A DNA stretch of 35,102 nucleotides from a virus (lineage: Duplodnaviria; Heunggongvirae; Uroviricota; Caudoviricetes): the IMG/VR virus record IMGVR_UViG_2563366856_000002, positions 1-35,102 of that record. One strand, 5' to 3'. The notes under the pieces are model-generated. The model had not been told where the DNA came from and did no database searches. It was given only the letters and a program-made list of their open reading frames with translations. Positions 12,603 to 31,136 of this stretch are shown here, one piece after another (the first letter of the stretch is position 1; each line of letters opens with the position of its first letter). A program made the translations under genes and the position numbers.

Positions 12603-12619
12603 TTTTGTGGAGAAAGTTG

Positions 12620-12967
12620 ATGCGTGATATGTATGAAGTGATGGATCGTTGGGGAGCTTGGGCTGCTTCAGACAATAGCGGAGTGGACTGGCAACCGGTA
12701 GCCGCTGGCTTCAAGGGGCTTTTACCTCATGGCAAAAAGTCCCGGATTCAGTGTGATGATGATGAGGGGCTCATGATCGATGGGTGCGTAGCTAGATTAA
12801 GAAAGTACAAACCAGAAGAGTATGAGTTAGTTATAGCCCATTTTGTGGTAGGGATTTCATTGCGAGCCATTGCTAAGAAGAGAAAGTGTTCGGATGGGAC
12901 TATCAGGAAAGAGTTGCAAACATCGCTTGGTTTCATTGAAGGCATTGTTTGCACTCTTGCCTGTTAA
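12620..12967 (+). CDS. late-gene antiterminator Q (phage antitermination Q family, small type)
   Basis: DRWGAWA...AAGFKGLLP...QCDDDEGLMIDGCVARL...CSDGTIRKEL..GFIEG matches the small Q-family pattern as recalled; located immediately upstream of the late/lysis region. Confidence 0.7.
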   Translation: MRDMYEVMDRWGAWAASDNSGVDWQPVAAGFKGLLPHGKKSRIQCDDDEGLMIDGCVARLRKYKPEEYELVIAHFVVGISLRAIAKKRKCSDGTIRKELQTSLGFIEGIVCTLAC

Positions 12968-12988: not shown

Positions 12989-13873
12989 TTATATTGGGCG
13001 CTTTGAATTCGATTTAAAGCGTCTTCCACTTATTCCAGAAACCCAAATGTCTTCCTCAAGAAAGTCAAGAAGGGCTTTTATTTCTTTTTTTGATGAAGGC
13101 ATGACAATTTTCTCAACACCGCCAACTATTATGGTTTGTAAGGGGAAATTAACTTTAGCAGCTTCGGATTTAAACTTTGACATATTTTGGGGTGTTAGCA
13201 TCCCAGTCTGATTTATTAGTGTTACTTTATTTCTTATCACTGTATCTGCAACGGATTTTAGATCAAAACCTTGGGGAGTAGAAAATACACTAAGTTGACT
13301 AAATGCATTAAGTTCTTGGTCAGTAGCAGCAGAAAAATAGGACGACATGTCAAAAATGCTTCTTAGATTAAAGAAACTCTTAAATCGTATTGTATCATTG
13401 ATAATTATTGCAACTAGTTTATCATCAACATTAAAACCGATGCTATTAGCTTTACTAAAGGTAGTTTTGCTTGCAAAAAGCTTTCCAAAGAATGATTTTG
13501 AGGTATCTAAGATTTGTTTTTTGTTGAAAGTTTGTAGTGCAATAATATTGGGGTTTGCTGGCGCGTCAACACCAACAAATAATGCTTTAATATAACCAAT
13601 ATCAATTTGGCTAGGATCCCAGATAGGCACGGCGGTAGGCCTATTGACTGCGTCAATCAGGCGTGCAGAATCAGTAAAGTTTTGTATTTCAAAACACTCA
13701 CTATGTTTTGGTGTATAACCGGCATAGAATGGTATCATATTGTTATGATGACTTTCAAAATATTGACGCTGTTGTTGGAAAATGGCCGTAACAGAAGTAC
13801 TTGCTGTTGCATCAAGTTCGACTCTAACAATTCTCGTTGCAATTGTATTATCTATTACTGCAAAAAGTGCCAT
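12989..13873 (-). CDS. hypothetical 294-aa protein, second gene of an AT-rich two-gene operon (possible KwaB-like)
   Basis: AT-rich; opposite strand to all flanking phage genes; 5-nt gap to upstream membrane-protein gene. Confidence 0.6.
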   Translation of the reverse strand: MALFAVIDNTIATRIVRVELDATASTSVTAIFQQQRQYFESHHNNMIPFYAGYTPKHSECFEIQNFTDSARLIDAVNRPTAVPIWDPSQIDIGYIKALFVGVDAPANPNIIALQTFNKKQILDTSKSFFGKLFASKTTFSKANSIGFNVDDKLVAIIINDTIRFKSFFNLRSIFDMSSYFSAATDQELNAFSQLSVFSTPQGFDLKSVADTVIRNKVTLINQTGMLTPQNMSKFKSEAAKVNFPLQTIIVGGVEKIVMPSSKKEIKALLDFLEEDIWVSGISGRRFKSNSKRPI

Positions 13874-13878
13874 GGTTA

Positions 13879-14400
13879 TTATCCTTTAACATGTAGAAAT
13901 GTGTAGTCTGTTAATTGAATAACTGTAAATTTGATATCTTTAATATCAGTAATAACTGATTTAGAAATCAATACAAAACCTACGCCGGTGTCATCTTCAG
14001 CTTCGTAAAATTTATAACCGATAAGTGACAATACTGGGTTAAAGTTATAGTTCTCGGAAAAGCTGATGTAAAATAACAATGATAAATAAAAGAATAACGC
14101 ATATGCTTTATTTTCAGCAATAGAATCTGTTCCTAGGAGAGGGAATAAATAGCTTAAGAAATAATTAGTTACTTCTTTGTTAGCGGGAGAAACTGAACTA
14201 ATATTTTTTGTCAGAGGTTCAAGTTGTTTCTCAGCATATTGAATCAGGCCTATTGCTAATAACCAACTTGCTATGCCAACGCATAAGCTATATTGCATCA
14301 GCCAAACCGTATCTTTTACATATCCAATAAAAAATAGAGTTGCGCAAACAGGTGCAATTGAGCTGGCTGTTAATAATAAGCGTGCTAATTTGTTCATCAT
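13879..14400 (-). CDS. integral membrane protein (about 4 TM helices), first gene of the two-gene operon (possible KwaA-like)
   Basis: Hydrophobic segments LARLLLTASSIAPVCATLFFIGYV, VWLMQYSLCVGIASWLLAIGLI, VTNYFLSYLFPLLG, AYALFFYLSLLFYISF. Confidence 0.6.
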   Translation of the reverse strand: MMNKLARLLLTASSIAPVCATLFFIGYVKDTVWLMQYSLCVGIASWLLAIGLIQYAEKQLEPLTKNISSVSPANKEVTNYFLSYLFPLLGTDSIAENKAYALFFYLSLLFYISFSENYNFNPVLSLIGYKFYEAEDDTGVGFVLISKSVITDIKDIKFTVIQLTDYTFLHVKG

Positions 14401-14580: not shown

Positions 14581-14731
14581 GTCATTTCTGGGCCTTGGTA
14601 TTCGTTGGGCTTGGTCTATCTAGTACTTATCCATTGGCTCGGCTTCTTTTACGTTTCCGCTTCTGGTTTGCGGTTCGTGGTACTCCCTCAATTTGCACCT
14701 CCTGTATCGGCGAGGTGAGAGATAACTACAA

Positions 14732-15058
14732 ATGCCTCATAACCCAAATACCTGGCTGGAGTTGGTCCAGAGCTGGTGGCGTGGAGACACACCACTGGGC
14801 GCAGTGATTATGTCGATCGTTATGGCTGGCTTGCGCATTGCCTATTTTGGCGGTGGTGGTGGCTGGAAGCGAAAAACACTCGAAATTCTACTCTGTGGCG
14901 CTCTGACGCTGACTTTTGCATCCGCTCTTGAGTATGTCGGATGGCCTAAATCGCTTTCTGTTGCCATTGGTGGTGGGGTGGGGCTGATCGGTGTCGATGC
15001 TATTCGTGGGGCTGCAATGAGAGTAATCGGTAATAAGTTTGGTGGCTCTAAGGAGTAA
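14732..15058 (+). CDS. S: holin (lambda S family)
   Basis: Three hydrophobic segments and G-rich loops in the same arrangement as lambda S. Confidence 0.8.
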   Translation: MPHNPNTWLELVQSWWRGDTPLGAVIMSIVMAGLRIAYFGGGGGWKRKTLEILLCGALTLTFASALEYVGWPKSLSVAIGGGVGLIGVDAIRGAAMRVIGNKFGGSKE

Positions 15059-15061
15059 TTT

Positions 15062-15538
15062 ATGCAGGTACTAAATTCCCAGCGTAAAGCTTTCCTCGAT
15101 ATGGTGGCATGGTCAGAAGGAACGGATAACGGGCGACAACCGACACGTAACCACGGTTATGATGTTATTGTTGGTGGTGAACTGTTCACTGATTACTCCG
15201 ATCACCCTCGCAAACTTGTCACGCTAAACCCCAAACTCAAATCAACAGCCGCCGGACGTTACCAGCTTCTTTCACGCTGGTGGGATGCTTACCGTAAACA
15301 GCTTGGCCTGAAAGATTTTTCTCCAGAAAGCCAGGACGCTGTAGCTCTGCAGCAGATTAAAGAGCGTGGCGCTTTACCGATGATTGATCGCGGTGATATC
15401 CGTCAGGCAATCGACCGTTGCAGCAATATCTGGGCTTCACTGCCGGGTGCTGGTTACGGTCAGTATGAACATAAAATCGGTGACCTGATTGCCCGGTTTA
15501 AAGAGGCTGGTGGGGTGGTAAATGAAGTTGAGCTATAA
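15062..15538 (+). CDS. R: endolysin, lambda R-type lytic transglycosylase
   Basis: Near-identical to my recollection of lambda R (NSQRKAFLDMVAWSEGTDNGRQPTRNHGYDVIVGGELFTDYSDHPRKLVTLNPKLKST...). Confidence 0.92.
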   Translation: MQVLNSQRKAFLDMVAWSEGTDNGRQPTRNHGYDVIVGGELFTDYSDHPRKLVTLNPKLKSTAAGRYQLLSRWWDAYRKQLGLKDFSPESQDAVALQQIKERGALPMIDRGDIRQAIDRCSNIWASLPGAGYGQYEHKIGDLIARFKEAGGVVNEVEL

Positions 15539-15914
15539 GCTGGTTATCGCTGCTTTCCTCGTTACTGTCATCGGTTCTTTCATCTGGTCAGCCAACCACT
15601 ACTACAGCAAATATCAGCACGAAAAGATACGTGCTGATGATGCGGTACGAAATGCTGAATCAGCAACTGCTATTACCAATAACGTCCTGCAATCATTGCA
15701 AATAGTCAATACAGTTCTGGAGGCTAACCAGCATGCAAAACAGCAGATCGCACTGGAGTCACAGAGAACCCAGGAAGATATCAAAGTGGCTGTTGCGGAT
15801 GATGATTGTGCTTCACGTCCTGTGCCTGCTGCCGCTGCTGACAGGTTGCGGAAATTCGCGGACGGTTTACGTGAGCGCTCCGGTGGCACCACTGCCAGCC
15901 AGCCTGACTTCTGA
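15522..15914 (+). CDS. Rz: i-spanin (Rz-like)
   Basis: N-terminal TM helix (LVIAAFLVTVIGSFIW) then coiled-coil-like periplasmic domain; overlaps endolysin stop. Confidence 0.7.
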   Translation: MKLSYKLVIAAFLVTVIGSFIWSANHYYSKYQHEKIRADDAVRNAESATAITNNVLQSLQIVNTVLEANQHAKQQIALESQRTQEDIKVAVADDDCASRPVPAAAADRLRKFADGLRERSGGTTASQPDF

Positions 15915-16056
15915 TACTCCTGTACCGTTTATTCCCAATCCGCTGACGTATGGTGCCAGTCTGGAGTTGAATGTGAGTCTGTTGTCTGCGCTGGCTAACT
16001 GCAATCGAGATAAAGCTGATATTCGAAAAATTGAAGCAGAGAGGAGCAAGCCATGA
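15799..16056 (+). CDS. Rz1: o-spanin lipoprotein (Rz1-like), overlapped architecture
   Basis: +1 frame within and beyond Rz; signal peptide with lipobox LLTGC; Pro-rich mature region. Confidence 0.65.
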   Translation: MMIVLHVLCLLPLLTGCGNSRTVYVSAPVAPLPASLTSDTPVPFIPNPLTYGASLELNVSLLSALANCNRDKADIRKIEAERSKP

Positions 16057-16385
16057 AGCAGTAAAGCGGACGGACCGTGGCAAGTAGCGCCAATGCAGCA
16101 GTCATGATACTGCCCAGAATACCCAAAGTTGCGGGTAGCCAGTCTTAGGTAAAAAGCTGAGGGTGTACTGGTGAGGGGTAACGGGAAGAAGCTCACTGGT
16201 ACTCTAGGCTGATCGCCACTCAGCTTCCGGTTAGTGGTGAGGGATTCTCGAGATCCCCCTAACACATGGCCTCAAGGGCATGAGCGCGGCTACTGCGAGA
16301 GCGTGAGGGGCATTACAGCAGCCATCCACTGGTGCCTACGCTAACTCTTTTGTTTACAATCGTCTCATTTAAATGTGAGGTGATT

Positions 16386-16865
16386 ATGGACGCAGATTTT
16401 ATATCATTTGAGGCAATGCTTGCTGCTAAAGATTCTGCACAGTGGGCTTATTGGGGGATGTGGATCGCATTATTTTCAGCAATTACTACATTTTTTGCCA
16501 TGGTAATAGGTGGGATTACGATTTTTAGTTGGCGTAAGCAAGAAGCTTTAAAAGATAAAAAGGCATTTGTTTTATCTGTCCTGAAGTTTCAAAAAACTGT
16601 TGGGCTTGGACCTGAGGCTTATCAATTATGTTCTGTACCCGATAACGATCCCTCTCATCCATTTTGGACTCTAACTCATTCATTAACAGATGTTTATGAA
16701 GCAGCATTGTTAATGACTGCTAAGAAAGATCGGGCGAAGGCAACTCGCATTTATACGATGCTTGATGAAATATATGAGTCCTTACATCAAGGTCGAATCA
16801 ACAGCAGGACGGCAACAGCTCGGATCTTAGCAATACAAAAAGACTCTTTTTTTGAAGATTATTAA
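16386..16865 (+). CDS. membrane-anchored hypothetical protein (single N-terminal TM), AT-rich single-gene insert
   Basis: 159 aa from ATG with GAGG RBS; TM segment WAYWGMWIALFSAITTFFAMVIGGITIF; followed by intrinsic terminator. Confidence 0.55.
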   Translation: MDADFISFEAMLAAKDSAQWAYWGMWIALFSAITTFFAMVIGGITIFSWRKQEALKDKKAFVLSVLKFQKTVGLGPEAYQLCSVPDNDPSHPFWTLTHSLTDVYEAALLMTAKKDRAKATRIYTMLDEIYESLHQGRINSRTATARILAIQKDSFFEDY

Positions 16866-16878
16866 ATACTGATTCCTC

Positions 16879-16898
16879 ACCGCCTCCGGGCGGTTTTT
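16879..16898 (+). terminator. rho-independent terminator
   Basis: ACCGCC-tccg-GGCGGT stem-loop followed by TTTTT. Confidence 0.65.
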
Positions 16899-17015
16899 AA
16901 TTATCATTACCATGGGTGCATTCACGTAACAGTAGTGTCACTGATATTCAGAGAATGCCTGTGATATTGCTACTGCTATCGGGTAAAATGTAGCCCTTGC
17001 AAATAGGAGGGCAGA

Positions 17016-17318
17016 ATGTCTGAACTGAATTATGAAGCAATAGGCCGCTGCAAAATCCTTAATGAAAAGATCAAAGATCTTCATGCTGAACGAATGAAAG
17101 CTATTGGTGATTTACGTACTGCTGTCTATGCCCTTCATCAGAAAGGGAATGTAAACCTCATCCCACCAGAAATTGTTGAATTCAACCCCCAATCGCTTAC
17201 ATCCCTTGTAGAGAAGGTTGGTCACTATGATGGTGAGCTGATGCGAGCTGTACATGAGTACAACAACTGGTGTGTAGAAGCAGGCGAGAAACCCGTAAAA
17301 CTTATAAAGCTAGACTGA
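17016..17318 (+). CDS. hypothetical 100-aa protein
   Basis: ORF with GGAGG RBS, followed by strong terminator; no family recognised. Confidence 0.5.
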   Translation: MSELNYEAIGRCKILNEKIKDLHAERMKAIGDLRTAVYALHQKGNVNLIPPEIVEFNPQSLTSLVEKVGHYDGELMRAVHEYNNWCVEAGEKPVKLIKLD

Positions 17319-17343
17319 AACAACAAATTTATGCAAATCATTA

Positions 17344-17367
17344 GCCTCGCACATGCGGGGCTTTTTT
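17344..17367 (+). terminator. rho-independent terminator
   Basis: GCCTCGC-acat-GCGGGGC stem-loop followed by TTTTTT. Confidence 0.65.
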
Positions 17368-17403
17368 ATGCGCACCATACATGCACATCAAAGAGAGTCT
17401 TCA

Positions 17404-17754
17404 ATGCCGCCACGAATACCAAAAGCCTGCCGTGTTCGCGGTTGCCGCCATACCACGACTGACCCGTCAGGCTACTGCGAAAGCCACAAAAGCGAAGGCT
17501 GGAAGCAATACAAACCTGGACAATCCCGTCATCAGCGCGGCTACGGTTCGATGTGGGACAGTATCCGCGCGCGTGTCCTGAAGCGTGACAAAGGCCTTTG
17601 TCAGTTATGTCTGCGTGCCGGTGTGGTGCGTGAAGCGAAAACCGTTGACCACATCATCCCTAAAGCGCATGGCGGCACTGATGCCGACCGTAATCTGCAG
17701 AGTCTGTGCTGGCCGTGTCATAAGGCGAAGACGGCCCGTGAACGGTTGAAGTGA
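17404..17754 (+). CDS. HNH endonuclease (terminase-associated)
   Basis: C-x-x-C...C-x-x-C zinc motifs and DHIIPKAHGG...N HNH core; located immediately upstream of terminase small subunit. Confidence 0.8.
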   Translation: MPPRIPKACRVRGCRHTTTDPSGYCESHKSEGWKQYKPGQSRHQRGYGSMWDSIRARVLKRDKGLCQLCLRAGVVREAKTVDHIIPKAHGGTDADRNLQSLCWPCHKAKTARERLK

Positions 17755-17780
17755 TAATAATTCTCAACTGCTTGAGGGGA

Positions 17781-17840
17781 GGGGCGGGTCAAATCCCTGC
17801 GGCCTGACGTCTTCCGGACTGCCCGCCCCATCGTTTTTTT
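17781..17840 (+). other. large GC-rich hairpin with T-run between HNH and terminase genes (candidate cos-region element or terminator)
   Basis: GGGGCGGG (17781-17788) and CCCGCCCC (17822-17829) are reverse complements, followed by TTTTTTT. Confidence 0.35.
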
Positions 17841-17879
17841 ATACCCGCGAAAAATGAAATTTAACCAGGAGTGCCGCAT

Positions 17880-18374
17880 ATGGCTGGAACGGCGGGGCGT
17901 TCCGGGCGTCGCCCCAAGCCAACGGCGCGCAAGGCGCTGGCCGGAAACCCCGGCAAGCGAGCCCTGAATAAAGATGAACCTGTTTTTACGCCCATCAAAG
18001 GTGTTGAGCCACCGGAGTGGTTCGCTGAAGAAGATCTCCCTCTCGCCACGATCATGTGGCAACTGACAACTAAAGAACTCTGCGGTCAGGGCCTGCTGTG
18101 CGTGACTGACCTCGCGGTGCTTGAGCGGTGGTGCGTGGCCTACGAGTTCTGGCGACGTGCCGTGAAAAATATTGCCAGACAGGGCAACACCATCACCGGT
18201 GCAATGGGCGGTATGGTCAAAAATCCGGAGCTGACCGCCAAAAAAGAACAGGAGTCCGAGATGAGCAGTACGGGGGCAATGCTCGGACTCGACCCCAGCA
18301 GCCGCCAGCGTCTGATTGGCCTGGCGGGGCAGAAGAAAGCCACTAACCCGTTTCTGAAAATTATCGAATCATGA
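17880..18374 (+). CDS. terminase small subunit (P27 family-like)
   Basis: ATG with AGGAG RBS; N-terminal basic region [27 protein letters not shown] typical of P27-type small terminase; stop overlaps large-subunit start. Confidence 0.8.
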
Positions 18375-20104
18375 GCCGGAAATCTTACCCCAACGTAAAT
18401 GCTGCCAATCAGTATGCCCGGGATGTCGTGCGCGGAAAGATTGTGGCCTGCCAGTTTGTGATTCAGGCCTGCCAGCGCCATCTTGATGACCTGATGGCGG
18501 AAAAAAGTAAGTCGTTTCGTTACCGCTTCGACAAGGACCTGGCTGAACGGGCCGCCAAATTTATTCAGCTGTTGCCGCACACCAAGGGTGAGTGGGCATT
18601 TAAGAGGATGCCCATCACGCTGGAGCCGTGGCAGCTCTTTGTGATCTGCTGCGCGTTTGGCTGGGTCAATAAAGGCTCCCGGCTGCGCCGCTTCCGTGAG
18701 GTGTATACCGAAATCCCCCGTAAGAACGGCAAATCGGCAATCTCTGCCGGTGTCGCCCTGTATTGTTTTGCCTGTGATAACGAGTTCGGCGCGGAAGTGT
18801 ATTCCGGTGCCACGACGGAAAAACAGGCATGGGAAGTCTTTCGTCCGGCAAGACTGATGTGTAAACGCACACCCATGCTGACGGAAGCGTTCGGGATTGA
18901 GGTTAACGCCTCAAACATGAACCGTCCGGAGGATGGTGCGCGTTTTGAACCGCTGATCGGTAACCCCGGTGATGGTTCATCACCCCACTGTGCGGTGGTG
19001 GATGAATATCACGAGCACGCCACAGATGCGCTTTACACCACGATGCTTACCGGGATGGGGGCGCGACGTCAGCCACTGATGTGGGCTATCACTACCGCCG
19101 GGTACAACATTGAGGGGCCGTGCTACGACAAACGGCGGGAAGTCATCGAGATGCTCAACGGCTCGGTGCCTAACGATGAACTGTTCGGGATCATCTATAC
19201 CGTTGATGAAGGTGACGACTGGACCGACCCGCAGGTGCTGGAAAAAGCCAATCCAAATATTGGCGTGTCGGTTTATCGCGAATTTTTGTTAAGTCAGCAG
19301 CAGCGTGCGAAAAATAACGCCCGTCTGGCAAACGTCTTTAAAACAAAACACCTCAATATCTGGGTGTCGGCGCGTTCGGCGTATTTCAACCTGGTGAGCT
19401 GGCAGAGCTGCGAGGATAAATCACTGACCCTTGAGCAGTTCGAGGGGCAGCCGTGCATTCTGGCCTTTGACCTGGCGCGTAAGCTGGATATGAACAGCAT
19501 GGCGCGACTTTATACCCGCGAGATTGACGGTAAAACGCATTACTACAGTGTGGCCCCGCGTTTCTGGGTACCGTATGACACGGTGTACAGCGTCGAGAAA
19601 AATGAAGATCGACGGACAGCCGAACGCTTTCAGAAATGGGTGGAAATGGGCGTTCTGACCGTTACCGATGGTGCGGAGGTGGATTATCGCTACATCCTCG
19701 AGGAGGCCAAAGCGGCGAACAAAATCAGCCCGGTCAGTGAGTCACCCATCGACCCCTTCGGGGCGACCGGGTTGTCACATGACCTTGCTGATGAAGACCT
19801 GAACCCCATCACTATCATTCAGAACTACACCAACATGTCCGACCCGATGAAAGAGCTGGAAGCGGCAATTGAATCGGGGCGCTTTCATCATGATGGCAAT
19901 CCCATCATGACCTGGTGTATCGGCAACGTGGTCGGCAAAACCATTCCGGGTAACGATGATGTGGTGAAGCCCGTCAAAGAGCAGGCGGAAAACAAAATCG
20001 ATGGTGCAGTTGCGCTGATTATGGCGGTTGGCAGAGCCATGCTGTACGAGAAAGAAGACACGTTGTCTGACCACATTGAGTCCTATGGGATCCGCTCGCT
20101 TTAA
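18371..20104 (+). CDS. terminase large subunit
   Basis: 577 aa; Walker A-like IPRKNGKS, ATPase and C-terminal nuclease region; canonical position. Confidence 0.9.
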
Positions 20105-29759: not shown

Positions 29760-31136
29760 ATGGATTTATCCTCATTTCCCACCCGACCTTCATTACTTTC
29801 GTCGTCTTCAGGCTGGCGTGACAGACTTCAGGACGCGTCATTTCGCGGCGTGCCGTTTAAGGTTGAAGAAGAAAGTGCGGGAACCGGTCGTCGTGTGGAA
29901 ACACACGAATATCCGAACCGCGACAAACCCTATACCGAAGATCTGGGAAAAGTTACTTTCCGCCCGTCCATCACGGCTTATGTGGTGGGAGATGACTGCT
30001 TTGACCAGCGCGATCGCCTGATTGACGCGCTGAATAAACCCGGTCCCGGCACGCTTGTCCATCCGACATACGGTGAGCTGAAAGTCTGTGTTGACGGGGA
30101 AGTTCGGGTCAGCACATCGAAGAATGAAGGGCGTATTGTCCGCTTTGACCTGAAGTTTGTCGAAGCGGGAGAACTCTCTTACCCCACTTCAGGTGCGGCG
30201 ACGGCGCAGACGCTGATGTCATCCTGTTCTGCACTGGATGACTGCATCAGTGACAGCTTCAGTGGTTTCAGTATCGATGGCGTGGCAGATTTTGTGCAGA
30301 ACGACGTCGTCGGTAATGCCAGCACAATGCTTGGGTATGTTTCTGATGCGATGAAAGTGGTGGATTCTGCCGTATCGGATGCCGCCAGGCTGTTGCAGGG
30401 GGATATCTCGGTACTTCTGCCGCCGCCATCGTCAGGCAAAAATTTCGTTGAGCAGGTGCAGAAAATGTGGCGTACCGGGAAACGCCTTTATGGTAACGCC
30501 AGCGACCTGGTCACCATGATCAAAACGCTTTCCGGTGTCAGCCTCGGCAGCGATCTGCAACCGCGCGGCGTCTGGAAAACGGACAGTAAAACCACCGCCA
30601 CGGCGACGCAACAGCGTAACGTGGTTGCCAGCACCCTTCGTACGACCGCAATCAGCGAAGCGGCGTATGCCGTCACCCGATTGCCTGCGCCAACAACTTC
30701 CGCGGTGATGCAGAATGCCGCAGTGGGGCAGGCAACAACACCCGCGCAGAGCACTGGCTGGCCTTCCGTCACGCATCCGGCACTGAACAATGCACCAGCG
30801 GTGAAAAGCACGGTTGACCTGCCGACGTGGGAAGAACTGACTGACATTCGCGACACACTGAATACGGCAATTGATAAGGAGTTGTCCCGAACAACCAGTG
30901 ATGCGCTGTTTCTGGCGCTGCGCCGGGTGAAAGCAGATCTGAATGCGGATATCAACACGCGCCTTGAACAGTCTGCACGGATCATTCAGCGCACGCCGGA
31001 TGAGGTCTTACCCGCGCTGGTGCTGGCGGCGACCTGGTTTGATAACGCGGCGCGTGACGCGGACATTATCCGGCGTAATGCCATTACGCATCCCGGCTTT
31101 GTGCCGGTGATCCCTCTGAAGGTGCCAGTGCAATGA
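29760..31136 (+). CDS. DNA circularization protein (Mu gpN-like)
   Basis: N-terminal ASFRGVPF...GRRVETHEYPNRD motif. Confidence 0.8.
   Translation: MDLSSFPTRPSLLSSSSGWRDRLQDASFRGVPFKVEEESAGTGRRVETHEYPNRDKPYTEDLGKVTFRPSITAYVVGDDCFDQRDRLIDALNKPGPGTLVHPTYGELKVCVDGEVRVSTSKNEGRIVRFDLKFVEAGELSYPTSGAATAQTLMSSCSALDDCISDSFSGFSIDGVADFVQNDVVGNASTMLGYVSDAMKVVDSAVSDAARLLQGDISVLLPPPSSGKNFVEQVQKMWRTGKRLYGNASDLVTMIKTLSGVSLGSDLQPRGVWKTDSKTTATATQQRNVVASTLRTTAISEAAYAVTRLPAPTTSAVMQNAAVGQATTPAQSTGWPSVTHPALNNAPAVKSTVDLPTWEELTDIRDTLNTAIDKELSRTTSDALFLALRRVKADLNADINTRLEQSARIIQRTPDEVLPALVLAATWFDNAARDADIIRRNAITHPGFVPVIPLKVPVQ

Follow-up and report, generated by a model that had tools for sequence, protein, structure and literature searches.

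In phage lambda, the interval from Rz/Rz1 to the packaging end of the genome holds the accessory gene bor. Accessory cargo of prophages has been described under the name of morons, which the Juhala/Hendrix definition characterises as extra DNA of deviant base composition that carries its own terminator and its own promoter, the latter active in the repressed prophage (PMC3594210). One moron protein, HK97 gp15, is a small inner-membrane protein that acts in superinfection exclusion (PMC3594210), and SieA of P22 is a small inner-membrane exclusion factor as well (PMC10883804). The slot between lysis and packaging genes is a documented hotspot of defence and counter-defence: in phi80 it holds the defence gene TaiEcA, which is antisense and constitutive, together with the counter-defence gene AtiEcA, which is sense and Q-dependent (PMC11364771).

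Here we describe a gene that occupies this slot in a virus sequence from IMG/VR (record IMGVR_UViG_2563366856_000002), the whole 35,102-nucleotide stretch of which is referred to below as the window. The window is a lambdoid prophage of the SfII/ST64B/vB_EcoM-689R6-like kind. Upstream of the target gene lie the genes for a holin (14732-15058), an endolysin (15062-15538), Rz (15522-15914) and the embedded Rz1 (15733-16056), and downstream of it an HNH endonuclease ORF (17353-17754 as listed), TerS (17871-18374) and TerL (18371-20104). The target itself is a 480-nt ORF on the + strand (16386-16865, with ATG at 16386 and stop codon at 16863-16865) that encodes 159 amino acids and is preceded by a Shine-Dalgarno sequence, GAGGTG, read from the sequence at 16377-16382. 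It is followed by an intrinsic terminator at 16879-16898, consisting of a stem (16879-16894) and TTTTT, whose folding energy of -12.8 kcal/mol (z = -3.2) was equalled in 1 of 200 shuffles. A preliminary description of this DNA had reported an AT-rich 159-aa ORF with an intrinsic terminator between Rz/Rz1 and the packaging genes, and it was right on each of these points. The true start of the HNH gene is probably at 17404 rather than 17353, since the N-terminus MPPRIPKAC, encoded from about that position, is conserved in relatives. The SfII genome record begins at about position 17755 of the window, so that cos lies in the interval from HNH to TerS, the arrangement of HK97-type packaging modules.

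The target ORF is a genuine gene under purifying selection. Comparison with its homologue in a metagenome contig (L003) gives a dN/dS of 0.18 by the Nei-Gojobori method, with synonymous sites saturated, and the full-length frame is retained at 57-59% identity in both this contig and a Buttiauxella prophage (L011). The GAGGTG-N-ATG start arrangement is also found in these two homologues and in L012. Six short metagenome contigs with the same lysis genes encode the target protein, one substitution apart. No near-identity match to 16000-17400 was found among 50,697 phage records, and the ORF has no match in 5,426 complete E. coli genomes. Its base composition (GC 0.38-0.41, GC3 0.29, with a GC of 0.38 for the ORF itself) is lower in GC than that of the lysis and packaging genes (0.50-0.57).

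The region around the target is exchanged as a block. BLASTN of the window against vB_EcoM-689R6 (L001) aligned only 14705-16034 and 17389-18500, with these flanks 91-96% identical, and so delimited a variable cargo block at 16035-17388 (+) that is absent or replaced in vB_EcoM-689R6, SfII and 118970_sal3. The slot of vB_EcoM-689R6 holds a 168-aa hypothetical gene (L001 3545-4051) with no similarity to the target and, judged from the alignment, shows cassette replacement between near-identical flanks. The preliminary description had spoken of a single-gene insert. That the gene belongs to an insert is borne out, but the insert does not consist of a single gene: it contains a non-coding element of about 270 nt, a decayed copy of a 39-nt hairpin, the target and the cassette of a second, 100-aa ORF, with two terminators in all. 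The target is thus an accessory, 'moron-type' gene and exchangeable cargo.

The same arrangement extends to the relatives of the target. At every family locus with enough flank to be read (Buttiauxella, four Klebsiella prophages and several IMG/VR contigs), the gene follows the lysis cassette, precedes HNH or terminase and lies on the late-gene strand, and the family accompanies at least three unrelated holin types (Phage_holin_3_1; holin_8 with holin_3_7; holin_3_3). In the Buttiauxella and Klebsiella prophages, the slot also carries genes for an Acb2/Tad1-hairpin protein (the Acb2/Tad1-like gene being in the Klebsiella relatives), a Ser/Thr kinase with a PP2C phosphatase, a GvpU-like protein and DUF2560. 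The target family therefore consists of exchangeable cassettes of Enterobacterales lambdoid prophages in the accessory slot that leads from lysis to packaging. A family member in the same slot of Salmonella phage 118970_sal3 (L002 3073-3626) is broken into two overlapping ORFs, each annotated as a hypothetical protein, and is probably a frameshifted copy. Elsewhere in the window, the interval from Q (12605-12967) to the holin gene contains an AT-rich island that encodes a complete Kiwa system (12989-14400), made up of KwaB (12989-13873, E = 2e-150) and KwaA (13879-14400, E = 2e-83), both on the - strand and antisense to Q, the holin gene and the late operon.

The target protein has a single hydrophobic span at residues ~20-48, as the preliminary description had noted in assigning it one N-terminal TM helix, and nothing hydrophobic past residue 60. 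Its 19-residue N-terminal tail is acidic (net -3), and the flank that follows the span, WRKQEALKDKK, is basic (net +3). An acidic tail, one span and a basic C-terminal flank recur in all 70 family members examined, and in every one of them the flank after the span is more positive than the tail (medians +2 and -2). The positive-inside rule then predicts an N-out/C-in orientation. Thus, the target is predicted to be a bitopic inner-membrane protein with an N-terminal tail at residues 1-19, a TM helix at ~20-48 and a cytoplasmic bundle at ~50-159. AlphaFold, given a 28-sequence alignment, returned a model of the target with pLDDT 88.9 (56 with only 3 sequences) in which a long helix, residues 3-74, comprises tail, TM segment and stalk and forms a four-helix bundle together with three further helices (92-108, 113-134 and 140-151). 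In this model, the TM helix would run on beyond the membrane as a stalk that joins the bundle in the cytoplasm.

When 1.84 billion cluster representatives were searched with a profile, 51 family proteins were recovered, so that the family is rare, and all are confined to Enterobacterales prophages. The members are 150-190 aa long and share an N-terminus, MDADLISYESMLAARDSANWAFW, followed by the hydrophobic span and an SWKxQE motif, after which they diverge: median pairwise identity is 37% over residues 1-60 and 13% over residues 61-159. In four members (P0034, P0039, P0076 and L060), the N-terminal module is retained and the C-terminal domain is unrelated, which marks the membrane module as the constant part of the protein and the cytoplasmic domain as the variable one. 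All named members, from Buttiauxella, Klebsiella, Rahnella, Pectobacterium, Serratia, Enterobacter and Citrobacter, are annotated as 'hypothetical protein' and lack any Pfam domain. The preliminary description had placed the cytoplasmic domain in no known family, and our searches agree. Pfam, NCBIfam and PADLOC gave nothing above noise for the target or 28 family members (in PADLOC 2.0, 0 families matched the target, with noise-level matches only across the 28), and the sole library match was to phrog_6169, of unknown function, over the TM region. A sequence-profile search of the PDB gave a best E of 0.14. Remote relatives among structural or lysis proteins, for which the preliminary description had suggested a search, were likewise not found in Pfam, PHROGs, PADLOC or by Foldseek against viral structures (no match at E <= 0.001).

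Downstream of the target terminator lies the second cargo ORF (17016-17318, +), which is AT-rich, encodes 100 aa and matches phrog_4827, of unknown function. Just upstream of the probable HNH start, an intrinsic terminator at 17343-17371 (+), of the form AGCCTCGC-ACAT-GCGGGGCTTTTT, closes the variable block and is very similar to the terminators that end the ~270-nt element in L118 and L201. We considered whether the 100-aa protein might be an obligate partner of the target and rejected this, because the two co-occur only in the window and in L003, which carries the closest homologue of the target. The 100-aa ORF stands alone in L106, the Buttiauxella and Klebsiella members of the target family have no adjacent 100-aa ORF, and the Klebsiella neighbour is unrelated. 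The pairing is therefore better explained by recent common descent than by an obligate two-gene system.

The 5' part of the block is taken up by the ~270-nt conserved non-coding element, the window copy of which (16041-16307, +) was recognised by homology and covariation. We found about 85 homologous copies, 66 of them distinct, with a median identity of 63% (for example L010 2352-2639, L118 4741-5005 on the - strand, L125 1529-1789 on the - strand and L252 2501-2716), and the element is present in at least 120 IMG/VR stretches. Nearly every copy has stops in all six frames, on average 2.6-6.2 per frame; with no frame open, we rejected a coding function. The alignment instead supports a structured RNA: its 7 helices comprise 31 pairs, at which 97% of cells are paired, and 20 of these pairs show compensatory changes. 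Cells in which both partners have changed number 198, where shuffles gave 48±5 and slid controls 17-52. The element is not a tRNA or tmRNA, as ARAGORN finds none, and neither it nor the 39-nt hairpin matches Rfam 15.

Several further features of the element recur. Its 5' end carries a conserved Shine-Dalgarno sequence and an ATG whose frame closes after 1-4 codons; the mini-ORF of the window copy (ATG AAG CAG TAA, 16052-16063) overlaps the Rz1 stop. Its 3' end is either an intrinsic terminator or the 39-nt hairpin. The element is always in sense with its operon, whether after Q/tR' (in mEp237, for example), after the lysis genes (the window) or in the pL operon, where the mEp213 copy sits between two N genes. 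Members of the target family directly follow the element in the window, L199, L232 and L237. The window copy keeps 25 of the 31 consensus pairs, the fewest in the set and in part perhaps a result of misalignment around an insertion, and it may be decaying.

Between the element and the target lies a decayed copy of the hairpin (16309-16345, +), which scores 17.1 bits (E = 0.017) with the covariance model R1, the best in the window, and folds with -6.9 kcal/mol compared with -22.1 for the consensus. A second, more degenerate remnant, at 16931-16970 (+; 12.8 bits, E = 0.36 with R1, and also picked up by a motif scan), precedes the 100-aa ORF cassette and retains the 3' arm CCTGTGATATTGC. The consensus, GGCATTACAGCAGGCATTCACTGAGTGCCTGTGATAATGC, is a near-invariant imperfect palindrome of 39 nt, and a pattern scan found exact matches to it in at least 120 IMG/VR stretches. 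The hairpin typically lies 16-90 nt before the start of small, unrelated genes. It occurs in phi80, mEp390, ZF40 and Klebsiella phages, mostly with no annotated feature beneath the match, and in 94 of the 5,426 complete E. coli genomes. Canonical copies are found, for example, at L012 7566-7605 and 7923-7961 and at 44298-44337 of phi80 (NC_021190), where the hairpin adjoins tai. Family members directly follow the hairpin in L003, L011, L012-15, L043, L060, L091 and L120. Around 141 strong copies, the recognisable lysis genes all lie upstream on the same strand (244 ORF matches), and packaging genes lie downstream on the same strand (137 matches, with one exception). A miniature palindrome at 31063-31082, GGCATTACG...GATAATGT, far from the lysis-packaging slot, matches the hairpin in its outer stem only (R1 16.6 bits, E = 0.024).

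The hairpin comprises 16 bp, interrupted by a 2x2 internal loop. Among 40 distinct variants, 95% of cells are paired, with compensatory GC<->CG and CG<->GU/AU changes, and compensatory changes are also seen in a second hairpin class, AGCCA...TGGCTTCGATAAT. One-sided changes are transitions that preserve G·U, and pairs valid for the + strand only make up 88 of 640 cells. As such G·U pairs are valid for the + strand only, an RNA hairpin in the late transcript is favoured over a protein-binding DNA palindrome. An extended -10-like sequence, TGnGATAAT, can also be read in the 3' arm, so that the hairpin could have a promoter role; the window copy has TACGCTAAC at this place. We rejected two other identities by position: the hairpin lies after the lysis genes and is not the phi80 pR'/Q site, and it is not the cos site, which maps near 17755, at the SfII genome end. 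A literature search for the motif sequence found nothing, and a preprint on the Pas sRNA appears unrelated. The classical phages that carry the elements include phi80, mEp213, mEp237, mEp390 and Stx2c phages, in nearly all of whose records they are unannotated. Both RNA-like elements thus appear to be undescribed and to be a more novel result than the target gene.

These observations bear on when the target is expressed. No sigma-70-like promoter was found upstream of it on the + strand, and together with the mutated -10 of the hairpin this makes its expression in the lysogen doubtful. In this window, the gene is probably transcribed as part of the Q-antiterminated late transcript, and it may have a weak promoter of its own as well. 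Because it lies in sense within the Q-dependent late operon, a role in the lytic phase is as plausible as one in lysogeny.

What, then, might the target do? Our best single guess is a membrane-level role in phage conflict, since the slot is a hotspot and HK97 gp15 and P22 SieA offer precedents. That the target is an inner-membrane phage-conflict factor, acting in exclusion or abortive infection, is a reading we hold tentatively and at somewhat less than even likelihood. In such a protein, the conserved N-terminal tail and TM segment would form a membrane-acting or partner-binding module, and the fast-diverging cytoplasmic bundle would be the specificity domain; the protein would either block entry of a superinfecting genome or collapse the membrane on sensing a superinfecting phage. 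The context is in keeping with this, as the same prophage carries Kiwa between Q and holin, and yet no homology of the target to known exclusion, Abi or defence proteins was found. Two further points count against a conflict role. The lysogen-expressed defence genes nearby, tai in phi80 and Kiwa in the window, are antisense whereas the target is sense, and a mostly cytoplasmic protein is atypical for blockers of a periplasmic DNA conduit. With the missing promoter, the mutated -10-like box and the sense orientation, two rival explanations stay live. The target might be a lysis accessory, a late membrane protein through which the phage adjusts the triggering of its holin, the release of its endolysin or the action of its spanins. 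It lies directly downstream of Rz/Rz1 on the same strand, its family follows the lysis cassette at every locus examined, it is a predicted bitopic inner-membrane protein and, having no promoter of its own that we could find, it would be co-transcribed with the lysis genes. However, phages with a 91-96% identical lysis cassette do without it, its family accompanies holins of three or more unrelated families, Pfam and PHROGs give it no match to a holin, antiholin or spanin, and its foreign base composition and own terminator fit poorly with such a role, which we judge unlikely.

The other rival is that the target serves counter-defence or host takeover in the lytic phase, neutralising a membrane-associated defence of the host or of a prophage, or giving self-immunity to the defence of its own phage. 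The orientation within the Q-dependent operon is that of phi80 AtiEcA, in sense, the tai defence gene being antisense; an Acb2/Tad1-like anti-defence gene occupies the same slot in the Klebsiella relatives; and rapid divergence of the cytoplasmic domain fits an arms race. That this prophage also has Kiwa, a membrane-based system, counts in favour, but family members are also found in prophages without a nearby Kiwa, the target has no similarity to known anti-defence proteins, and a purely late gene needs no terminator behind it. We therefore consider this role improbable too. A surface or virulence factor of lysogenic conversion, like lambda Bor, is suggested by position alone, as bor lies in the equivalent lambda slot. 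The protein itself speaks against it: the acidic N-terminus (MDADFISFEAM...) has neither signal peptide nor lipobox, at most about 19 residues would be extracytoplasmic, no Bor or other Pfam domain is present, and the target is sense whereas bor is antisense, so that this explanation is very unlikely. In favour of decay, both RNA-like elements directly upstream are degraded, and the family member of 118970_sal3 is split in two ORFs. Yet a chance ORF or functionless pseudogene would hardly show the dN/dS given above, a full-length frame at 57-59% identity, a confident fold predicted from family covariation and a conserved Shine-Dalgarno sequence and start context, and we regard it as even more remote than a Bor-like factor.

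As a gene, then, the target is an uncharacterised example of a well-known kind, prophage accessory cargo in a hotspot. It adds an unstudied and very rare family to a hotspot that has already yielded defence and counter-defence genes, and with its conserved membrane module and hypervariable cytoplasmic bundle, the family is a candidate for a cheap phage-challenge screen. The flanking RNA-like elements matter more than the target protein. They might be new classes of functional RNA, acting as signals for processive antitermination, for processing or stability, or for translation coupling, or as trans-acting RNA. Should they prove functional, they would account for the expression or exchange of foreign cassettes in long antiterminated operons, and they would provide a sequence handle for the systematic discovery of cargo genes. 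It is possible, if on the doubtful side, that we are dealing with an undescribed architecture in which the cargo is bounded on its 5' side by the ~270-nt RNA and the 39-nt hairpin and the TM family is a new membrane-level conflict effector. Such a cassette architecture would serve swap-in cargo in the Q- and N-dependent antiterminated operons of enterobacterial lambdoid phages.

How does the target compare with the systems already described? The preliminary description had pointed to lambda bor. This comparison stands insofar as both are accessory genes between Rz/Rz1 and the packaging end, the target being horizontally exchanged cargo in the bor slot. It fails for the products: Bor is an outer-membrane lipoprotein encoded antisense, whereas the target is encoded in sense, lacks a signal peptide, a lipobox with its N-terminal cysteine and a Bor domain, and is predicted to reside in the inner membrane. 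With phi80 TaiEcA/AtiEcA, the target shares the genomic slot and the 39-nt hairpin that stands beside tai, but alignment of the family profile A3 with phi80 gp52 by hhalign gave a probability of 0.15%, and Tai is described without a transmembrane segment and antisense to the late operon (PMC11364771). P22 SieA and the target are both inner-membrane proteins of ~160 aa encoded by prophages, and SieA types diverge to <30% identity (PMC10883804). SieA is predicted to have three TM segments and contains the motif FxRYPxEAxxFNK (PMC10883804), whereas the target has one span and lacks the motif; for SieA, the target gave no annotated PHROG match.

A different kind of likeness is offered by the SLATT and the CBASS/Pycsar 2TM effectors, in which a cytoplasmic helical domain is likewise joined to an N-terminal membrane module and which might serve as a 'works-like' model, with membrane collapse as the outcome. 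Unlike these, the target has one TM segment rather than two and no adjacent gene for a cyclase or sensor partner. Matches to SLATT/2TM profiles were sub-threshold (best E = 0.007-0.011, in 1-2 of 28 members) and were not repeated in ten members scanned individually, and we rejected this identity. As to morons, the target shows three of their four features, namely extra DNA, deviant composition and a terminator. HK97 gp15 has no sequence relation to the target (no YebO match at E <= 1 for the target and 28 members). The target is also larger, with a cytoplasmic helical bundle of ~110 aa, and it lies in the lysis-packaging slot rather than the tail operon, with no promoter detected. Set against these differences, HK97 gp15 and the target are both small inner-membrane proteins encoded by a cassette of foreign composition with its own terminator in a lambdoid late operon. 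Neither occurs outside the Enterobacteriaceae, and in each the N-terminal part is conserved and the C-terminus has diverged (PMC3594210).
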